Assembly (NCBI GenBank): GCA_013152815.1
Contig: JAADFO010000005.1
Coordinates: forward strand, 1 to 35,583
DNA length: 35,583 bases
Direction of reading: 5' to 3'
Origin: Nanobdellati archaeon
Lineage (GTDB): Archaea > Nanobdellota > Nanobdellia > Woesearchaeales > JAADFO01
Both the position numbers and the translations under genes were made by a program. The notes under the pieces are model-generated. The model did no database searches and was not told the DNA's origin. It worked only from the letters and a program-made list of their open reading frames with translations. Of this stretch, positions 926 through 8,074 are shown piece by piece (position 1 is the first letter of the stretch; every line of letters starts with the position of its first letter).

Positions 926-3598
926 CTACTTCCTTCTTTTCATCTTCTGTTTTCCTTTCTCCAGTGATATCTTGGCCTGGATCATGCTGTGCATGCGCCG
1001 GAGGAAGTCCATGCGGTCCTCCATGCGGAGCAGGTCGGTGTGGCCCTGGAGGATCAGGTGGAAGGCGAAGGGCGACGGGATGGTCGTGCTGATCTCCCTG
1101 GTCTGTATCTTCCTGTCGTCGATGGCCTGGATGATCTCTCTGGTGTGGTCGATGTCCATGAGGTCCTCAAGGACCTCCCGTCGGGCCTCCTTGAGGATGG
1201 AGAAGTCCTTGCTGATGCGCTTCAGAGCGTTGATGAGGATCTGGGACGATATCTGCTGTCTGCCGACCCTCTTGGTCCTTCCTTTGTAGTTCCGCAGGAT
1301 CATCAGGGAGCGGGTTGCACAATGACGGAACCGTCGTCTCAGCACCTCGCTGCGGTCGATGGCGAACTCCATGAGCAGGTCGAGCTTCTCTGCCTTGAGG
1401 ACCTTCATGGCACCCTTCACCGAGACGGATTTCGGGCTTGCGAGGTAGAACCCGTTGTCCGATATGCCGACCTCCACGTCACGATGCTCAAGGCGGGAGA
1501 ACGCATAGGCCACCGCCCTGCTGAGGCAGTCGTTGACCCGTCTGCCGTAGAGGCTGTGGAAGATGCAGTAGTATCTGCCCTCGTCCCGGTAATGCTCGAT
1601 GATGATCCTCCGGTGGTTGGGTATCTTCGCGTAGTCGTACTGTTCCCTGAAATAGCCGTGGATGGCCTTTGCTCCATTGTCGTCCACCCGGAGATACGAG
1701 TGGATGAACCGGACGATCTCCTCTTCCGGCTCCTCTGCCTTCAGTTTCGCGTCCATGAGCTTCCGGAACTTTCCGATGTCCTGGGCCAGGTCGAAGGAGA
1801 GAGGGAGCATCTCTGAGAACCAGGCAGGGATGGTGGGAGGCCTTCCTGCGCTGGCGACGACCTGGATGGTCATCCCTCTGGAGAACCTGAACTCGTAGCT
1901 TGCCCCTCCGAGCACGAAGACGTCTCCCCGATGCAGCCGTTCCAGGAATCCCTCGTCCAGGGTGCCGATGAGCCGGTCCCCTATCTTCACCCGGACCCTG
2001 GTCTCGTCGGGGATGGTGCCGATGTTGGTCATGTAGATGACCCTGGCCATCTTCCCTCTCCTGCCGATCATCCCGGTCTCCTCGTCCACCCAGATCTTGG
2101 CGTAGATATGCCTCGATTCGAGGGAGGCGTACTCCCCTGACAGGTAGCGGAGCACCTCAAGGAAATCGTGGTAGGGCAGGTCGGCATAGCAGTGGCTGCT
2201 CGTGACCAGTCGGAAGAGGTCGTCCCGGTGGATGGGAGCGGCTATGGCGATCCCATAGATCTGCTGGGCCAGGACGTCCAGGGCATTCTTCGGGATGTGG
2301 ATGCGGTCGATCTTCTTCTCGACGGCGTTCTTCTGGAGGATGGCACATTCCACCAGGTCGTCCTGGTTGGTCACGATGATCCTCGCCTTGACCGTCTCAT
2401 GGAGACGGTGGCCGGCCCTGCCTGCACGCTGGAGGAACCGGGCGACGGATTTGGGAGAGCCGATGCAGATGACCAGGTCGATGTAGCCGATGTCGATGCC
2501 CAGCTCCAAAGAGGTGGAGGTGACGACGGCTTTGAGCTTTCCCTGGCGCAACCCTTCTTCGATGCGGAAGCGGTGTTCCTTGGACAAGGATCCATGATGG
2601 GCGCCGATGGCCCTGGTCTTACCTGCCGGGGCAGGGTCTGGTTCATCTTCGATGTCCACCGGCTCGGTGTAGTTTTTGGGGAAATGGTTCCGCAGATAGT
2701 CCACCACCCGTTCTGTGGCTGCCCTGGTGTTGGTGAAGATGAGCGTCGTCCGGTGCTGCTGGATCAGGTCGTCGATGATCTCATAGCGTTTCCGGTAGGC
2801 TTCCTCATAGGGCGTGTTGATGAGGTCAGGGACAGGGCATATGACCTGGAGGTCCATGTCCTTGATGAACTGGACGTCGATGATGCTGCAGTCTCTCGGC
2901 TGTCCATCCTCGTGGCCGACGAGGAACTTGGCGATCTCTTCGAGCGGCGCGACCGTGGCAGAGAGTCCTACCCTGGTCAGGTGAGGGCAGAGGCGGTGGA
3001 GCCGTTCCACGCTCAGGGACAGGTGGACCCCTCTCTTGTTCTCCGCCAGTGCGTGGATCTCGTCGATGATGAGCCAGTCTGCCTCCTTGAGATGGTCGAT
3101 GAACTTGATGGAAGAGAGTACGATGGCGAGGCTTTCAGGGGTGGTGATGAGGATGTGCGGGGGCTTCTTGAGCATCCGGGTCTTCTCTGCAGGGGTGGTG
3201 TCCCCTGTCCTCACCCCCACCCTGATGCCGAGCTTCTTCCCGGCGATGGCTTCCATCTCCCTGAGCGGCTCCACCAGGTTCTTCTCGATGTCGTTGGATA
3301 ACGCCCGCAGCGGGCTCACATAGATGCAGTAGGTCCGGTCCTGGAGGATGCCCTTGTCGGCAGAGTCGATGAGCTCGTTGAGGATGGAGAGGAAGGCTGT
3401 CAGGGTCTTGGTGGCCCCGGTGGGCGCAGAGACCAGGATGTTCTTCCTGCTGTGTATCTCCATGACCCCGAAGCGCTGGGGGAGCGAGAACTCCTTGAAT
3501 CGGGAGAAGAACCACTTCTTCACGATGGGGTGCAGGATCCGCTCGATCTCTTCTGGCTTGTTGGGCGTCTCTTTGTAGGTTATTCCGGTATTGATCAC
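926..3598 (-). CDS. lhr: Lhr-family SF2 ATP-dependent helicase
   Basis: Motifs APTGATKT (I), YVSPLRALSND (Ia), TTPESL, IIDEIH (II), LSAT (III), HHGSL, TSLELGIDIG, QRAGRAGH (VI); 890 aa; GTG start. Confidence 0.93.
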   Translation of the reverse strand: MINTGITYKETPNKPEEIERILHPIVKKWFFSRFKEFSLPQRFGVMEIHSRKNILVSAPTGATKTLTAFLSILNELIDSADKGILQDRTYCIYVSPLRALSNDIEKNLVEPLREMEAIAGKKLGIRVGVRTGDTTPAEKTRMLKKPPHILITTPESLAIVLSSIKFIDHLKEADWLIIDEIHALAENKRGVHLSLSVERLHRLCPHLTRVGLSATVAPLEEIAKFLVGHEDGQPRDCSIIDVQFIKDMDLQVICPVPDLINTPYEEAYRKRYEIIDDLIQQHRTTLIFTNTRAATERVVDYLRNHFPKNYTEPVDIEDEPDPAPAGKTRAIGAHHGSLSKEHRFRIEEGLRQGKLKAVVTSTSLELGIDIGYIDLVICIGSPKSVARFLQRAGRAGHRLHETVKARIIVTNQDDLVECAILQKNAVEKKIDRIHIPKNALDVLAQQIYGIAIAAPIHRDDLFRLVTSSHCYADLPYHDFLEVLRYLSGEYASLESRHIYAKIWVDEETGMIGRRGKMARVIYMTNIGTIPDETRVRVKIGDRLIGTLDEGFLERLHRGDVFVLGGASYEFRFSRGMTIQVVASAGRPPTIPAWFSEMLPLSFDLAQDIGKFRKLMDAKLKAEEPEEEIVRFIHSYLRVDDNGAKAIHGYFREQYDYAKIPNHRRIIIEHYRDEGRYYCIFHSLYGRRVNDCLSRAVAYAFSRLEHRDVEVGISDNGFYLASPKSVSVKGAMKVLKAEKLDLLMEFAIDRSEVLRRRFRHCATRSLMILRNYKGRTKRVGRQQISSQILINALKRISKDFSILKEARREVLEDLMDIDHTREIIQAIDDRKIQTREISTTIPSPFAFHLILQGHTDLLRMEDRMDFLRRMHSMIQAKISLEKGKQKMKRRK

Positions 3599-3625
3599 CC
3601 TGGCCTGCTCTGTAACTTATAACGC

Positions 3626-3632
3626 TTTAAAA
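3626..3632 (-). promoter_or_regulatory. Putative TATA box of lhr
   Basis: Minus-strand TTTTAAA about 27 nt upstream of the lhr start (leaderless spacing); abuts repeat copy 1. Confidence 0.5.
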
Positions 3633-3635
3633 GCC

Positions 3636-3658
3636 TTATGCACGCCATGTCCAGTGGG
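3636..3658 (+). repeat. 23-bp direct repeat, copy 1 (TTATGCACGCCATGTCCAGTGGG)
   Basis: Identical to 6115-6137; 21/23 to 4426-4448; copies 1 and 2 also share the preceding AAAGCC. Confidence 0.95.
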
Positions 3659-3693
3659 GTGTGCCGGGTTTTGCTCTGTGTTCAAAGAAATAG

Positions 3694-4119
3694 CTATCTG
3701 CCTGCTCTTGATGAGGTGGGAGATAAGATGAACTTTTTTTCATTTTGCTGGAACTTGATGTTGAATTTATCGAAGAATACTTCCCTTCCGAGAAGCGGAT
3801 TATTGTTGAAGTCATCCAGCACCCAGACGGGCATCTGGAAGACGACACGATCATGGCCTTTCTCAATCTTTACAGACACTTTTGATAAGGTCCCTTTGAC
3901 TGTTCCTCCAATACCTGCAACATCCTGCTTTTTTCCACGAAGATCAAGTTCTAGAAGTTCAGCAAAATCTCTTGAGATGACAGGGGTGTCTGCTCCTGAG
4001 TCGATAAGGGCAACTGAAGTGAGTTTCTGTTTACCCGAGAAGGTGAGAGGTATGCATGGTGCATAGACGTTCCCATGATTCTTACGTTCCTGTAGCTTAT
4101 ATCGAAAGTGCATTGTCAT
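3694..4119 (-). CDS. Retropepsin-like (clan AA) aspartyl protease
   Basis: ALIDSGAD catalytic motif, GIGG flap-like segment, LLGR motif; 141 aa single domain. Confidence 0.88.
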   Translation of the reverse strand: MTMHFRYKLQERKNHGNVYAPCIPLTFSGKQKLTSVALIDSGADTPVISRDFAELLELDLRGKKQDVAGIGGTVKGTLSKVSVKIEKGHDRVVFQMPVWVLDDFNNNPLLGREVFFDKFNIKFQQNEKKFILSPTSSRAGR

Positions 4120-4127
4120 CTTAACAG

Positions 4128-4322
4128 CTAGAATAGCATCGCTTCATTACCTCGTACTTTGGTAATGAACGGGGTGGTCTTGGGTTGCTGTTTTTTTGCT
4201 TTGTTGAAAACTTCTTTTGCTGTCTTTCCAGAGGCAATGACTTTGTTTTGAGATATTGCTACCCATTCGTCTTTGTACTGGCTAAAATCCTCTTTCATGA
4301 AGAACTTGAATTCTTGTTCCAT
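4128..4322 (-). CDS. Small DUF5678-like protein (64 aa)
   Basis: MEQEFKFFMKEDFSQYKDEWVAISQNKVIASGKTAKEVFNKAKKQ; 'Y..EWVAI...KVIASG....V...A' pattern. Start reset to ATG 4322, which has an A-rich/TATATA element about 23-30 nt upstream. Confidence 0.8.
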   Translation of the reverse strand: MEQEFKFFMKEDFSQYKDEWVAISQNKVIASGKTAKEVFNKAKKQQPKTTPFITKVRGNEAMLF

Positions 4323-4425
4323 CTTTTCTCTTTTCAAGAAGAGTCTTTTCACGTATATATGGTTTTTCGTTGAAAACCCGGAAGAAATCCACTCAATATG
4401 TAACCATTCCATTGTTTATAAAGCC

Positions 4426-4448
4426 TTATGCACGCAGTGTCCAGTGGG
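4426..4448 (+). repeat. 23-bp direct repeat, copy 2 (TTATGCACGCAGTGTCCAGTGGG)
   Basis: Two mismatches (CA to AG) versus copies 1 and 3. Confidence 0.93.
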
Positions 4449-4485
4449 TGTTTTGTTTCTGTATAAACTATCGAGTAGTCAACTG

Positions 4486-4500
4486 CGAAATCTTTATAAA
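4486..4500 (+). promoter_or_regulatory. Putative BRE/TATA for the 375-aa ORF
   Basis: CGAAATCTTTATAAA ending 23 nt before ATG 4524. Confidence 0.55.
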
Positions 4501-4523
4501 TGTAAGATATACTCTCTGTATAT

Positions 4524-5651
4524 ATGTCTGAGCGAATTTTTCAAGCAATGGATGAAGTTGCTTCACAAGGACTAGACGCCATGTTAAAAGAAATTGTGCG
4601 GACAGGCTCTGATGAACACGATTATTCTAAAGTGTGCCAAGCAAAATATCATCTAAAAAGATTAGAATTGGGTTTGCCTGAGATTGTTGATTCAGGAAAA
4701 GATATTGAAGACAGAAAAGATTCTCTGCAACCGTTGAATGACGTAATGAGGCAGTGTAGGGCAGAGGTAGCAGCGCATTACAAAGCAGATGGAATTTTTT
4801 TAGAGGCAGCTCTTAATTTTATTGAAGCTGGAAGACCTAAAGATGCAATTGATATGTTTATTAAGGAAGGTTCTGAGAGATCTTTAGCTGATGCTGCGTT
4901 TTGGGCAGTCGAATCCGGTGTTGATTATAAATTTGGTTTTGACTATAGAATACAAAAAGGAGAAATACGGACAGCTTTTGATGAGTTACATAGAGTAAGC
5001 GACTCTCATGGTATCGGAACAGAAGAAAAACAGCGATGGGGAGAATACCTAACAAGAGCTGCTTACCATGCAGTTGTAGATGGAATAAAAGCTGAAATAG
5101 AAGAACAGGAAGGTCAAAAACCTAAAGGCGAAACAATCTCCCAATTACTTGATGGGAGAGATGCTAAGCTTATTTTTGTATCTGATGGCCATATTGATAA
5201 GAATTTTGTAAACTCGTTAAGGTATGTGAGCGAATCAAGTGACCCTGAAATAATTCAATTGGGAATTGAACTATATGCGTTTCTGGTAAGACATGAAGAA
5301 GAAAAACACATGAAAGAATATTATGAAATAACGGAAATGTATCTGAAAGGAAAATTAACAGGCAGTGATGAATATATTCAATATTTAATTAAAAAAACTG
5401 AAGAAAATCAAACAAATGATGAACTTGATTTTGGTAAGTTTATTGCTGAAAGAGCAGTTGACGTTTTACAATTTCATAAGAAATATGATGCTGCTTTAAA
5501 GGTTGCAGAAAGATTCTTGTCTCCGGAACATAAGACGAGGTTTGCATTGCTTGAAAAATTGGGAGATACTCAAAAGTTGGCCCTTGCCTATAGAGACATT
5601 GATGACCCCATCAGCTATGCTATGGTGGTGTCTGGAAGAACGGGCCAATAA
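4524..5651 (+). CDS. Hypothetical protein, probably alpha-helical
   Basis: 375-aa AT-rich ORF with a TATA-like element upstream; no motif recognised. Confidence 0.8.
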   Translation: MSERIFQAMDEVASQGLDAMLKEIVRTGSDEHDYSKVCQAKYHLKRLELGLPEIVDSGKDIEDRKDSLQPLNDVMRQCRAEVAAHYKADGIFLEAALNFIEAGRPKDAIDMFIKEGSERSLADAAFWAVESGVDYKFGFDYRIQKGEIRTAFDELHRVSDSHGIGTEEKQRWGEYLTRAAYHAVVDGIKAEIEEQEGQKPKGETISQLLDGRDAKLIFVSDGHIDKNFVNSLRYVSESSDPEIIQLGIELYAFLVRHEEEKHMKEYYEITEMYLKGKLTGSDEYIQYLIKKTEENQTNDELDFGKFIAERAVDVLQFHKKYDAALKVAERFLSPEHKTRFALLEKLGDTQKLALAYRDIDDPISYAMVVSGRTGQ

Positions 5652-5819
5652 GAACATCCTGCCTTTCTACGTTCAAGGCCTTTTTCTCGATTGAAACGAA
5701 TCCCTGTTGAATTTCATGGATGTGTAAACGCTTTATCTTGGAGAGACTAAAGCTTTCGAGTAAACGTTCAGGTCTCGCGTTTAGTATCTTTTAAATATTC
5801 TTCTTGATTTGCTTCTTTC

Positions 5820-6098
5820 ATGAAAGTATGGTATAGGTTACAAGTGTATAAAATGAAAAAAGAATTTGAATATCTTTCTAATGTTTATGCTGCGTTGGAT
5901 GAGACGATTTTAAAACGAGCTCATAAGAAGGAATTAAATCGAATATTTGAGCGATTATCTACAGATTTTCCTGTATTAGAAGAATTGGTTAAAGAGAATA
6001 CCCGTGAAGGATATTTCACTCTTTCAGCAGGTGGAACTGTTTATGACCTTGAAAGCGCCAAAAAACTCTTATCCAGATATCTTGTTCTTGCGGCCTAA
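5820..6098 (+). CDS. Hypothetical protein (92 aa; alternative start 5853)
   Basis: AT-rich ORF with TTTTAAATA about 23 nt upstream; stop lies 16 nt before repeat copy 3. Confidence 0.6.
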   Translation: MKVWYRLQVYKMKKEFEYLSNVYAALDETILKRAHKKELNRIFERLSTDFPVLEELVKENTREGYFTLSAGGTVYDLESAKKLLSRYLVLAA

Positions 6099-6114
6099 AC
6101 ATGTATTGCACATA

Positions 6115-6137
6115 TTATGCACGCCATGTCCAGTGGG
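6115..6137 (+). repeat. 23-bp direct repeat, copy 3
   Basis: Identical to 3636-3658; enclosed by inverted repeat TGCACATA (6107-6114) / TATGTGCA (6144-6151). Confidence 0.95.
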
Positions 6138-6163
6138 ATCTGCTATGTGCATTACCGCAACAC

Positions 6164-6281
6164 TTATAAACGCTCCCCTGTTCTCAGGATGTAAAGCTAC
6201 GATTCATGTAGCTGGTCTAGCGCCGAGAGGCGTGACACGATAGATACAACTCACATTCAAAGACCTATTCAAGGTGAAACA
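6164..6281 (+). promoter_or_regulatory. Putative TATA box and structured 5' leader of the rps19e operon
   Basis: TTATAAA 6164-6170; hairpins AGCTAC-7nt-GTAGCT (6195-6213) and CGCC-GAGA-GGCG (6221-6232); AGGTGA SD-like sequence before ATG 6282. Confidence 0.5.
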
Positions 6282-6884
6282 ATGGCATCAATCTATGACG
6301 TGCCCACTGACCGACTCATACAGCAGACTGCAGAGGAATTGAAGAAGGTCGAGTCCATACGGCCTCCGGTGTGGTCTCCCTATGTCAAGACCGGTGCGCA
6401 TAAGGAACGGCCGCCGGTCCAGAAGGACTGGTGGTATGTCCGGGCAGCGTCGGTCCTGCGGAAGGTGTCTATCCTGGGTCCCATCGGCACGTCAAAGCTC
6501 AAGGCGAAATATGGCGGCAAGAAGAACCGGGGCATGAAGAAGGAGCGTCACTATGACGGTTCGGGTTCCATCACGCGAAAGATCCTCCAGCAGCTGGAAG
6601 CGGCAGGTTTCCTTGCGAAGGAGGAGAAACAGGTCCATCGGGGAAGGAAACTCTCTCCCAAAGGCCATTCTTTCATCGACAAGGTCGCATCATCATTATA
6701 TGTTCCTCCTGTCAAGAAGAAGAAGCAGGTCAAGACGCCTGCAAAATCAGAGGCTCCGAAGGAGGATGTTCCTAAGGATGTTCCTAAGGATGTTCCTAAG
6801 GATGTTCCAGGGGCCACAGACAAGGCTGCTGCTGGAGCAGATGGTGCTTCAGAGAGCAAGCCGGTGAATGATAAGAAAGCGTAA
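6282..6884 (+). CDS. rps19e: 30S ribosomal protein S19e with low-complexity C-terminal extension
   Basis: PPVWSPYVKTGAHKERPP, WWYVRAASVLRK, YGGKKNRG, GSGSITRKILQQLE. Confidence 0.97.
   Translation: MASIYDVPTDRLIQQTAEELKKVESIRPPVWSPYVKTGAHKERPPVQKDWWYVRAASVLRKVSILGPIGTSKLKAKYGGKKNRGMKKERHYDGSGSITRKILQQLEAAGFLAKEEKQVHRGRKLSPKGHSFIDKVASSLYVPPVKKKKQVKTPAKSEAPKEDVPKDVPKDVPKDVPGATDKAAAGADGASESKPVNDKKA
6763..6808 (+). repeat. 12-bp tandem repeat AGGATGTTCCTA x3.8 encoding (DVPK)n
   Basis: Perfect copies at 6763, 6775, 6787; partial at 6799. Confidence 0.95.
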
Positions 6885-6885
6885 G

Positions 6886-7215
6886 ATGGATGAGCTTGAG
6901 GCATTGCGGCAGAAGAAGCTGGCAGAGATGCAGCAACAGGCAGAGATGCAGTCCCAGGCCCAGCAGGAGGCTTCCCAGCTCCAGGCGCAGATAGAACAGC
7001 TGGAGCAGTTGGCCCGGACGGTCCTGTCCCCTGAGGCCATGCAGCGCTATGCTGCCCTGAAGCTTGCCCATCCAGAGACTGCTGTCCAATCGTTGCTGGT
7101 CATCGCCCAGCTCGTCCAGGCAAAACGGCTGAAGCATCTCGACGATGCAGGGTTCAAGGACATCCTCCGGACCCTCGGCACCAGCAAGAAGGACATCACC
7201 ATAACCAGGAGATAA
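6886..7215 (+). CDS. PDCD5-related DNA-binding protein
   Basis: MDELEALRQKKLAEMQ, LSPEAMQRY, end ITITRR; conserved position between rps19e and rpl39e. Confidence 0.9.
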   Translation: MDELEALRQKKLAEMQQQAEMQSQAQQEASQLQAQIEQLEQLARTVLSPEAMQRYAALKLAHPETAVQSLLVIAQLVQAKRLKHLDDAGFKDILRTLGTSKKDITITRR

Positions 7216-7247
7216 GGACCGAAGAAGTAATCCGAGGAAATAATAAG

Positions 7248-7421
7248 ATGGCACGATTCATCCACCTGTCGAGGAAACTGAGGCTCGCCAAGAAAGGGCG
7301 GCAGACACGCTGGGCCCCTTTCTGGACAGTCCCGAAGATCTATGGCACCAACAGGAAGGTGCATCCAGGCAGGCATACTGTTGTTAAGCGGAGCTGGAGA
7401 CGCTCCAAGACCAAGGCATGA
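7248..7421 (+). CDS. rpl39e: 50S ribosomal protein L39e (absent from the ORF track, 57 aa)
   Basis: Translated by hand: MARFIHLSRKLRLAKKGRQTRWAPFWTVPKIYGTNRKVHPGRHTVVKRSWRRSKTKA*; K.RLAK, P.W and WRR motifs plus synteny. Confidence 0.92.
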   Translation: MARFIHLSRKLRLAKKGRQTRWAPFWTVPKIYGTNRKVHPGRHTVVKRSWRRSKTKA

Positions 7422-7423
7422 TC

Positions 7424-8074
7424 ATGGCAGATGACAAGGATGTCGATGTTTCGTACAATGTCCCTCTGAGGAAATCCTTCCTCAGGACCCCGAAGTACAA
7501 GCGGGCGAAGAAGGCCATAGCCGCACTTAAAGAATTCATCCGACGCCACCAGAAGGTGGAAGAGGTCAAGATCGGGAAGCATGCCAACGAGAAGATCTGG
7601 GCCAACGGCATCAAGAATCCTCCTCATCATATCAAGGTCCACGCGGTCAAGGAAGACAATATCGCTCTGGTGGAGCTTGAAGGCAAGGTCTATGCGAAGC
7701 CCAAGGTGAAGGAAGAGAAGAAAGAGGGCGGCCTGAAAGGGAAGATCCAGGATATGGTCGGCGGCGGAAAGAAGAAGTCGCCCCGGAAGAAGGAAGAGGC
7801 AAAGCCAGAGGAGAAGAAATCCGAACCTGTGTCTGAAGAGAAGAAGACGTCCGGAGCTGCTCCTGCTCAGACAAAGGATGCTGCCGTCGCTCCTGTCAAG
7901 CCTGCTCCTGTGGAGCCGAAGAAAGAGGATGTCCCTGCTGCTGAACCTTCTGAGAAGGCTGCTCCTGTCAAGCCTGCTCCTGTGGAGCCGAAGAAAGAGG
8001 ATGTCCCTGCGAAGCCCGCCGTGCCTGCCGGGAAGAAGCCAGAAGCAAAGCCTGCTGATAAACCTTCTGCATAA
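7424..8074 (+). CDS. rpl31e: 50S ribosomal protein L31e with long K/E/P/A-rich tail (start 7418 or 7424)
   Basis: YNVPLR, KRAKKAI, EFIRRH, NEKIWANGIKNPP. Confidence 0.95.
   Translation: MADDKDVDVSYNVPLRKSFLRTPKYKRAKKAIAALKEFIRRHQKVEEVKIGKHANEKIWANGIKNPPHHIKVHAVKEDNIALVELEGKVYAKPKVKEEKKEGGLKGKIQDMVGGGKKKSPRKKEEAKPEEKKSEPVSEEKKTSGAAPAQTKDAAVAPVKPAPVEPKKEDVPAAEPSEKAAPVKPAPVEPKKEDVPAKPAVPAGKKPEAKPADKPSA
7889..8010 (+). repeat. Two identical 50-bp copies (7889-7938, 7961-8010) in the L31e tail
   Basis: Each encodes APVKPAPVEPKKEDVP(A); period 72 bp. Confidence 0.95.

Follow-up and report, generated by a model that had tools for sequence, protein, structure and literature searches.

Introduction

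How did a block of foreign DNA come to lie between two divergent housekeeping genes of an archaeon, framed by short direct repeats and with no recombinase gene beside it? The question is raised by a 35,583-nt stretch (hereafter the window; forward strand of contig JAADFO010000005.1, assembly GCA_013152815.1) from a Nanobdellati archaeon of the order Woesearchaeales, in which the 23-mer TTATGCACGCCATGTCCAGTGGG occurs three times on the plus strand between lhr and rps19e. An earlier note on this DNA had taken the 23-mer for the dedicated site of an undescribed archaeal cassette system, at which small cargo-only modules are added by a recombinase acting in trans. The analysis described here corrects this "23-bp cassette site" to a host promoter element: as judged from sequence comparison, the 23-mer appears to be the upstream part of the lhr promoter, composed of a spacer (TTATGCACGCCA) on the side of the transcription factor B recognition element (BRE) and of an 11-nt box (TGTCCAGTGGG). 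The box is apparently a conserved, undescribed regulon box that resembles archaeal origin recognition boxes (ORBs). The reading preferred here, with a probability of about 0.55, is that foreign DNA entered by recombination at the lhr promoter element and duplicated it, the three copies being the products. The locus cautions that a repeat-bracketed islet need not be a new mobile system, and foreign genes that land in a promoter element and take over its copy would have found a route to damage regulation. How DNA repair is switched in archaea outside the Sulfolobales is largely unknown, and the ORB-like box provides a testable candidate for an SOS-like regulon and for its regulator.

Direct repeats at the edges of a low-GC insert

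The three copies of the 23-mer (copies 1, 2 and 3 from left to right; Table 1) lie in direct orientation, as first described, at a spacing of 790 and then 1689 nt, and zero copies are expected from 100 dinucleotide shuffles of the sequence. Copies 1 and 3 are identical at 23/23 positions, the identity stopping abruptly on either side, and copies 1 and 2 are alike over 29 nt, namely AAAGCC followed by the 23-mer (27/29 identical). The AT-rich character of the interval is borne out by the GC profile, with 0.58-0.62 in lhr, 0.30-0.45 from 3600 to 6150 and 0.52-0.58 from rps19e onward, and the positions of the outer copies match the edges of the drop. Direct repeats are present at the junctions of compositionally foreign DNA, the pattern by which att-type sites and cis-mobilisable elements (CIMEs) are recognized. 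Spacings and open reading frames (ORFs) also agree with the two modules that had been proposed (790 and 1689 bp, modules A and B), which carry genes in opposite orientations behind TATA-like promoters of their own.

The full 23-mer is confined to this locus. In the assembly, a draft of 1,494,016 bp in 76 contigs with 90.8% completeness, these three are the only matches with up to three mismatches (reversed control: 0), and at the same threshold there was no match in 400 other genomes of the order, none of which belongs to the same genus. Viral and metagenome contigs, searched with the two central bases left free, likewise gave none. For comparison, 59 low-GC islands were defined in the genome (merged regions with GC below 0.43 over at least 0.8 kb, at a genome mean GC of 0.53), 37 of which could be tested for flanking repeats: long flanking direct repeats exist only here (23 nt) and at an island on contig C51 (31 nt), the other 35 having no flanking direct repeat above 17 nt, and a flanking repeat of 23 nt was seen at 2/300 random control positions. 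Therefore, the outer pair is best read as a recombination footprint at the promoter element. Of the earlier claim that the repeats are the footprint of integration this part stands, with the 23/23 identity and the sharp edges as its support, whereas site-specific mobility of cassettes is unsupported.

The island on contig C51 (C51:32341-33118; L083:842-1619) consists of 716 bp with a GC content of about 0.31, bracketed by an exact 31-nt direct repeat (32341 and 33088), and contains two small minus-strand ORFs of 81 and 94 aa that match no Pfam family; a toxin-antitoxin character is not claimed for them. The 31-mer belongs to a dispersed hairpin-like repeat family with further members at C71:5583 (one mismatch) and on contigs C12, C15, C43, C53 and C60 (five to six mismatches), and some members border other low-GC islands.

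It is very improbable that a low-GC fragment of another organism or of an episome was merely joined to the chromosome at a common short repeat during assembly. Such an artefact would fit a 76-contig draft with an insert of strongly different GC content and short exact repeats at its edges, but the foreign piece would need to carry the 23-mer at both ends and once inside, and copy 2 has 29 nt, including the lhr-specific AAAGCC, in common with the host promoter. In addition, the final k-mers of common assemblers are longer than a 23-nt repeat, which speaks against an artefact.

The 23-mer as a probable upstream element of the lhr promoter

The two halves of the 23-mer differ in their distribution within the genome. 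Sub-strings that cover the box are frequent (TGTCCAGTGG occurs 11 times and GTCCAGTGGG nine times, with about 2.8 expected by a size-based estimate), and the 5' part (TTATGCACGC) is found only in the three copies of the 23-mer. The additional box copies adjoin TATA boxes at a constant distance. A 44-nt profile built from eight sites recovers all eight (E 5e-7 to 1e-3), followed by copy 3 (E 0.023), whose match to the promoter model is limited to the spacer and the box, then by two doubtful sites (E 0.37 and 0.75) and by nothing further below E 10. At 5/8 sites, a gene on the opposite strand has its start 44-50 nt away, counted from the first base of the box, and the TATA box stands in between. 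Transcription is therefore directed away from the box, which is found past the TATA box on its BRE side, around -40 to -60 relative to a leaderless gene. On the gene strand, the sequence that separates the TATA box from the box (GCATAAGG beside the TATA box) would fit a BRE in position and purine richness, and CCTTATG beside the lhr TATA box (CATAAGG on the minus strand) occupies the presumed BRE position.

Five genes stand behind the box in this genome, namely lhr, a Hef gene (734 aa; DEAD, Helicase_C, ERCC4 and HhH), a PD-(D/E)XK nuclease gene (PDDEXK_1, 1e-31), a gene for an RNase-H-like exonuclease of the RNase_H_2 superfamily (8e-33) and a 140-aa ORF. The earlier note had named scatter of the repeat upstream of ordinary genes as an observation that would speak against a cassette site; such scatter is found for the 11-nt core and not for the full 23-mer, of which the 12-nt spacer varies widely among the other box sites of the genome. 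The notion of a dedicated site is unsupported on three points: a promoter box that precedes ordinary genes genome- and order-wide makes up the 3' half of the 23-mer, the BRE-side spacer of lhr makes up the 5' half, and copy 2 is itself a copy of the promoter.

Copy 2 faces the DUF5678-protease gene pair of module A and shows the arrangement of the lhr promoter, with TTTATAAAGCC followed by the 23-mer as compared with TTTAAAAGCC followed by the 23-mer at lhr. It is regarded as a copy and not as a convergent site because the spacers of the other box sites of the genome are quite different. Copy 3 has no TATA box at the right distance and is located where the GC content regains the host level.

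Two further symmetries were noticed around the copies. Copy 3 lies within a 12-nt inverted repeat (11/12; GTATTGCACATA at 6103-6114 on the insert side and TATGTGCATTAC at 6144-6155 in the host flank), seen in the fold and in the sequence, and copy 2 is flanked by inverted TATA-like 10-mers (4414-4423 and 4458-4467; 9/10).

A conserved promoter box across the order

Among 60 relatives, 27 contain TGTCCAGTGGG, with 75 copies in total as compared with 15 for a reversed control word. In 29 fetched loci, a TATA-like 8-mer stands 11-14 nt upstream of 22/30 sites, as compared with 1069/5000 random positions (21%), and at 17 sites an ATG-started ORF of at least 100 aa begins 25-140 nt away on the opposite strand, 11/17 of them at 43-53 nt. 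By Pfam, these 17 ORFs include proteins of repair and replication (UvrA in two cases, Hef-type helicase in two, and one each of DEAD_2/HBB XPD-type, Cdc6 lid/AAA and RNase_H_2) and mobile-type proteins (Bro-N in three cases and LAGLIDADG in two), the rest being one DUF4186 protein, one Na/H exchanger (112 nt away) and three ORFs without a family. The consensus of 36 sites reads TTTAaAt-N3-tta.g-N5-aTGTCCAGTGGG..gTG. The box is accordingly placed among conserved promoter elements, as its position relative to TATA/BRE and gene starts is fixed at several unlinked promoters, and its predicted targets form a functionally coherent set of repair and replication genes that is conserved across genomes and also takes in mobile-type genes.

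Membership of lhr in this set seems to change from genome to genome. In G029, which belongs to a different family, CACTGGACATnnnnTGC stands 14 nt from the TATA box of lhr, the spacing also found at lhr here, and the same-family relatives G002 and G003 have TTTAAAAGnCTTATG before lhr, as it stands to the left of copy 1. In G006 (L016, C16), the lhr-rps19e spacer contains four tandem 11-12-nt units resembling GCCGGACATCT, in the opposite sense to the box described here; these units are perhaps a multi-site form of this element that has diverged. Promoters or clusters with two to three boxes within 41-193 nt were found at L040, L043, L058, L077 and L081.

In G012, a box (1313-1323) lies 64 nt from the start of a Xer-like tyrosine recombinase gene (L091, C10:40200-41642; 437-1249 on the minus strand, 270 aa) with a TATA-like stretch in between, and chromosome-dimer resolution may belong to the same gene set there. 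For the Xer-like gene of the present genome (C1:776-1615), the nhmmer scan gave no box. No description of the box in archaea was found among the titles and abstract openings that a literature search listed.

Likely entry of foreign DNA at the lhr promoter

In the preferred scenario, about 2.48 kb of low-GC foreign DNA, comprising two modules, would have come to lie inside the promoter element in one or two events, either with copy 2 already present on a single incoming piece or by the successive arrival of two pieces. Copy 1 would still serve lhr, copy 2 would give the acquired protease pair an lhr-type promoter, and copy 3 would be the leftover duplicate at the far junction that marks the edge of the insert. 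The recombination may have been driven by homology or microhomology between look-alike promoters of the incoming DNA and the chromosome, or it may have been performed by a site-specific enzyme encoded elsewhere; alternatively, the box could have reached lhr with the insert, so that only TTATG would be native.

Comparison of the lhr-rps19e interval among relatives agrees with a short ancestral spacer in that the removal of 3659-6137 leaves 204 nt, as compared with 232 nt in G002; the divergent pair is 348 nt apart in G006 and 542 nt in G029. The earlier note had suggested that relatives be compared for an empty allele or for other cargo between copies. The spacers of G003 (769 nt) and G024 (1290 nt) hold other small genes, and around these, as around the additional genes in the G029 spacer, there are no noteworthy flanking repeats.

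Several observations weigh against entry at the lhr promoter. The history is read from a single allele, with no empty site, no other cargo and no circle in the genomes, viral contigs and metagenome contigs searched. Beyond the 29-mer, the likeness of copies 1 and 2 is within the range of shuffles (84/500 and 90/500), and the right flanks of copies 1 and 3 do not align significantly with the G002 spacer, the sole match being that of the right flank of copy 2 (3/500), in which the TATA region 4487-4502 aligns with a TATA-like stretch of G002. In the lhr upstream regions of 12 relatives, the box is found only in G029, three same-family genomes being without it, and the box may therefore have come with the insert instead of having been its target. 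In its spacer, the 23-mer comes close to the family consensus CTTAYGCAC, so that part of the identity of the copies could reflect selection. Finally, the sixth box site of the genome, at a contig end, lies 494 nt from radA (Rad51 family, 5e-88) and is a weak link to the repair genes.

Another explanation is that only regulatory duplication took place, selection or gene conversion having preserved the likeness of the copies and the foreign DNA having been brought in by unrelated illegitimate events; the copies might then subject lhr and the protease pair, and perhaps rps19e as well, to a common factor. This explanation is possible but unlikely. It agrees with the nature of the box as a promoter element, with the multi-box promoters and clusters common in relatives, with the four tandem box-like words in the lhr-rps19e spacer of G006, with the near-consensus spacer and with the low-GC islands of this genome, most of which have no flanking repeats, so that entry can leave none. 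However, copy 3 has neither a TATA box at the right distance nor a leftward gene, and relative to rps19e it stands opposite to the usual orientation; given how widely the 12-nt spacer varies at the other sites, an identity of 23/23 is unexpected from selection alone, and the repeats match the edges of the GC drop.

Box-containing repeats around small genes were also seen in two relatives. In G012 (L078, C1:202000-208500), a direct repeat of about 100 nt (about 93% identical, one indel), which spans TATA box, box and downstream sequence and has its boxes at 1921 and 4312, brackets 2.4 kb that encode a LAGLIDADG_3 protein of 423 aa and a TYW1-like radical-SAM protein. In G027 (L080, C53:1200-6500), boxes at 1534 and 3013, 1.5 kb apart, have at least 100 nt of nearly identical sequence on their far sides, and each precedes a toxin-antitoxin-like pair, namely Polbeta/NTP_transf_2 with HEPN and a 221-aa ORF with DUF6036. 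With the present locus, three genomes thus hint at an accumulation of small gene modules at the box. As the lengths of the repeats (23, 29 and about 100 nt) and their sides relative to the box differ between cases, homology-driven events fit better than a fixed core.

Comparison with integrase-free cassette systems

The original proposal of an active integrase-free cassette system, with the 23-mer as its attachment site and with small cargo-only circles that are inserted and excised in tandem by a recombinase encoded elsewhere, is now decidedly improbable. The exact outer repeats with their sharp edges would be expected of it, as would two modules that differ in GC content, and it could draw on the second mini-island of the genome with its exact 31-nt repeat, on the box-containing direct repeats that bracket small gene pairs in G012 and G027 and on the closeness of the G012 Xer-like gene to a box. 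Against it stand the restriction of the 23-mer to this one locus in all sequences searched, the varying lengths and sides of the repeats, the promoter nature of copy 2 and the lack of a suitable enzyme or site structure, as follows.

It was confirmed that no recombinase or transposase family matches any of the 13 ORFs scanned between 1 and 11.5 kb and that the window contains no tRNA. Elsewhere in the genome, PF00589 has a single match, a Xer-like gene of 279 aa on another contig (C1) in ordinary context, and no serine recombinase passes the cut-off; with no second occurrence of the site either, accretion by a trans-acting recombinase is not borne out. The largest cargo protein, the 375-aa protein of module B, is predicted to lack a recombinase fold. 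The ORFs that span the copies (3638-4066, 4273-4575 and 6004-6243), looked at by eye for a split integrase of the Sulfolobus spindle-shaped virus (SSV) type, are short, and the first is antisense to the protease gene. Rfam gave no match over 3300-6500 at E<=1.

The earlier statement that the site matches neither the dif nor the integron consensus holds. The locus recalls an integron in its succession of small cargo-only modules, among which is a two-gene pair such as cassettes often contain; unlike in an integron, there is no adjacent intI, attI or Pc arrangement, each gene has its own TATA box and the modules face opposite ways. Folding of 70 nt of single-stranded DNA at the three sites, on both strands, gave no attC-like hairpin, with z-scores of -1.47 to +0.48 relative to shuffles. 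With dif and with integrative mobile elements exploiting Xer (IMEX), the locus shares integrase-free DNA between repeats, and a Xer-like enzyme is the only tyrosine recombinase of the genome. The dif site is described as a 28-bp site with two 11-bp inverted arms and a 6-bp spacer (PMC2958812); as measured against that description, no copy of the 23-mer is overlapped by a dyad above chance, the best dyads with 11-nt arms and 4-10-nt spacers within 20 nt of the copies having 7, 7 and 8 of 11 matches, as do random sequences (among 500 random 63-mers of the window, the best value was 7 in 263, 8 in 87 and 9 in 7).

CIMEs and their tandem accretion at the att sites of integrative elements are known from the literature on bacterial integrative and conjugative elements. 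The likeness to them consists in direct repeats around integrase-less DNA and in two tandem modules with a common middle repeat; the differences are that no cognate integrase-bearing element and no second site were found and that the repeat is a promoter element and not a tRNA or gene end. Module A also resembles portable units of the toxin-antitoxin kind, as judged by the DUF5678-retropepsin pair, which is patchily distributed, and by the nucleotidyltransferase (NTase)/HEPN-type pairs behind the same box in G027, although no such activity is known for the DUF5678-retropepsin pair (PADLOC not searched).

Likeness to origin recognition boxes and candidate factors

The ORB consensus is given as CTTCCAGTGGAAACGAAAGGGGT (PMC4153887, Table 2) and as GTTCCAGTGGAAAC-AAA----GGGGG (PMC1868953). 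In the forms printed there, it has eight consecutive bases, TCCAGTGG, in common with the box and continues with AAAC after GTGG, whereas the box here has GG(A/T)GTG instead. The box precedes repair and replication genes that include an orc1/cdc6 paralogue. ORBs, which are bound by Orc1/Cdc6, form inverted pairs around an unwinding element, whereas the box stands at a fixed TATA distance of many scattered genes. The arrangement of a replication origin is not found at this locus, as the copies are direct and separated by genes and as orc1/cdc6 is not adjacent, the two Orc1/Cdc6 genes of the genome lying on contigs C26 (canonical) and C27 (a 364-aa paralogue, 6894-7988 on the minus strand). The paralogue has 50% identity to the product of a G024 gene whose promoter contains two boxes.

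In Sulfolobales, the Orc1/Cdc6 paralogue Orc1-2 is a key regulator of the damage response and acts through a different short motif. By analogy, an Orc1/Cdc6 paralogue acting as a transcription factor may bind the box, and the genes behind the box may form a putative damage or replication-stress regulon, in which case expression of the acquired genes could be damage-inducible. An XRE-type helix-turn-helix gene (73 aa; HTH_3, 4e-12; L030:2675-2896, plus strand) was noticed on contig C59, in an AT-rich stretch just past the box of the nuclease promoter (C59:12569), and its product is an alternative candidate for the box-binding factor.

It is quite unlikely, if worth stating, that the ORB-like box has a double role throughout the order, as the operator of a damage regulon controlled by an Orc1/Cdc6 paralogue and as a recombination hot spot that captures two-gene modules. 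If this were true, the proposed regulon would cover lhr, hef, uvrA, XPD, nucleases and orc1/cdc6 itself, and the captured modules would be, for example, the DUF5678-retropepsin pair here and the NTase/HEPN-type pairs in G027. Newly landed genes would be wired into the damage response, and the box would constitute a promoter-based, integrase-free analogue of the integron.

Cargo genes and other features of the locus

The Pfam assignments in Table 1 uphold the identities proposed for the two genes of module A. Relatives of the protease, at 24-48% identity, occur in 19/150 other genomes of the order (a tally that includes one unpublished genome, G134), and in 7/11 fetched protease loci, two of which are incomplete at their ends, a DUF5678 gene lies directly upstream. 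The DUF5678 homologues align from Met31 of the listed ORF, and the gene is therefore probably the shorter one given in Table 1. Within the fetched sequence, 0/11 other loci of this pair have the box. DUF5678 and the retropepsin would thus appear, from gene order, to be a portable two-gene unit that stands behind an lhr-type promoter only here. A protease behind the promoter of a repair gene recalls Ddi1, the eukaryotic damage-inducible retropepsin-like protease, and the Ddi1-type family PF09668 scores only E 0.067.

The two genes of module B had both been called orphans, which holds for the 92-aa ORF, for which no relative was found, and not for the 375-aa protein, which has six relatives at 36-68% identity. 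Their six fetched loci (three metagenome contigs and three contigs of metagenome-assembled genomes, the latter from an Aenigmatarchaeota archaeon, "Euryarchaeota archaeon SM23-78" and an unclassified archaeon; GC 0.32-0.46) have no conserved neighbours. In its AlphaFold2 model (pLDDT 88), the 375-aa protein forms a helical TPR-like solenoid, for which the PDB gave nothing at E<=1e-3, and this predicted helical repeat structure ruled out a hidden recombinase. By tblastn, the protein had no match in phage and plasmid records, and in viral contigs one negligible match was found (E 1e-4 over 47 residues). In PHROGs, the four cargo ORFs gave only weak matches, to families of unknown function.

Table 1. 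Features of the lhr-rps19e locus; positions are those of the window.
Feature	Position	Strand	Basis and remarks
lhr (Lhr-type helicase, 890 aa)	926..3598	-	Pfam DEAD, Helicase_C, WH_Lhr, DEAD_assoc; GTG start 50 nt left of the copy-1 box
TATA-like box TTTAAAAG, lhr promoter	3626..3633	-	Sequence
23-mer copy 1	3636..3658	+	BRE-side spacer 3636-3647 and ORB-like box TGTCCAGTGGG 3648-3658
Retropepsin-like aspartic protease, 141 aa (module A)	3694..4119	-	PF13650 1e-8, PF13975 9e-8
DUF5678 protein (module A)	4128..4322 (listed ORF to 4412)	-	PF18929 4e-14; likely true start MEQEF, 64 aa
TATA-like box TTTATAAAG, duplicated promoter	4415..4423	-	Sequence; adjoins the 29-nt repeat common with the lhr promoter
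23-mer copy 2	4426..4448	+	Two mismatches, CA>AG at positions 11-12; box 4438-4448; nhmmer E 2.7e-4, one of the 8 training sites
375-aa protein, predicted all-helical, TPR-like (module B)	4524..5651	+	Own TATA 4491-4501
92-aa ORF (module B)	5820..6098	+	ORF listing; no relatives found
23-mer copy 3	6115..6137	+	Identical to copy 1; box 6127-6137; no left TATA, no leftward gene
rps19e	6282..6884	+	PF01090 8e-51; TATA-like box 6163-6171

To the right of the insert, S19e (200 aa) and L31e (7418-8074, 218 aa) both have long Lys/Pro/Ala-rich C-terminal tails beyond their Pfam domains, and these tails hold short repeats, such as KDVP, which occurs four times in S19e.

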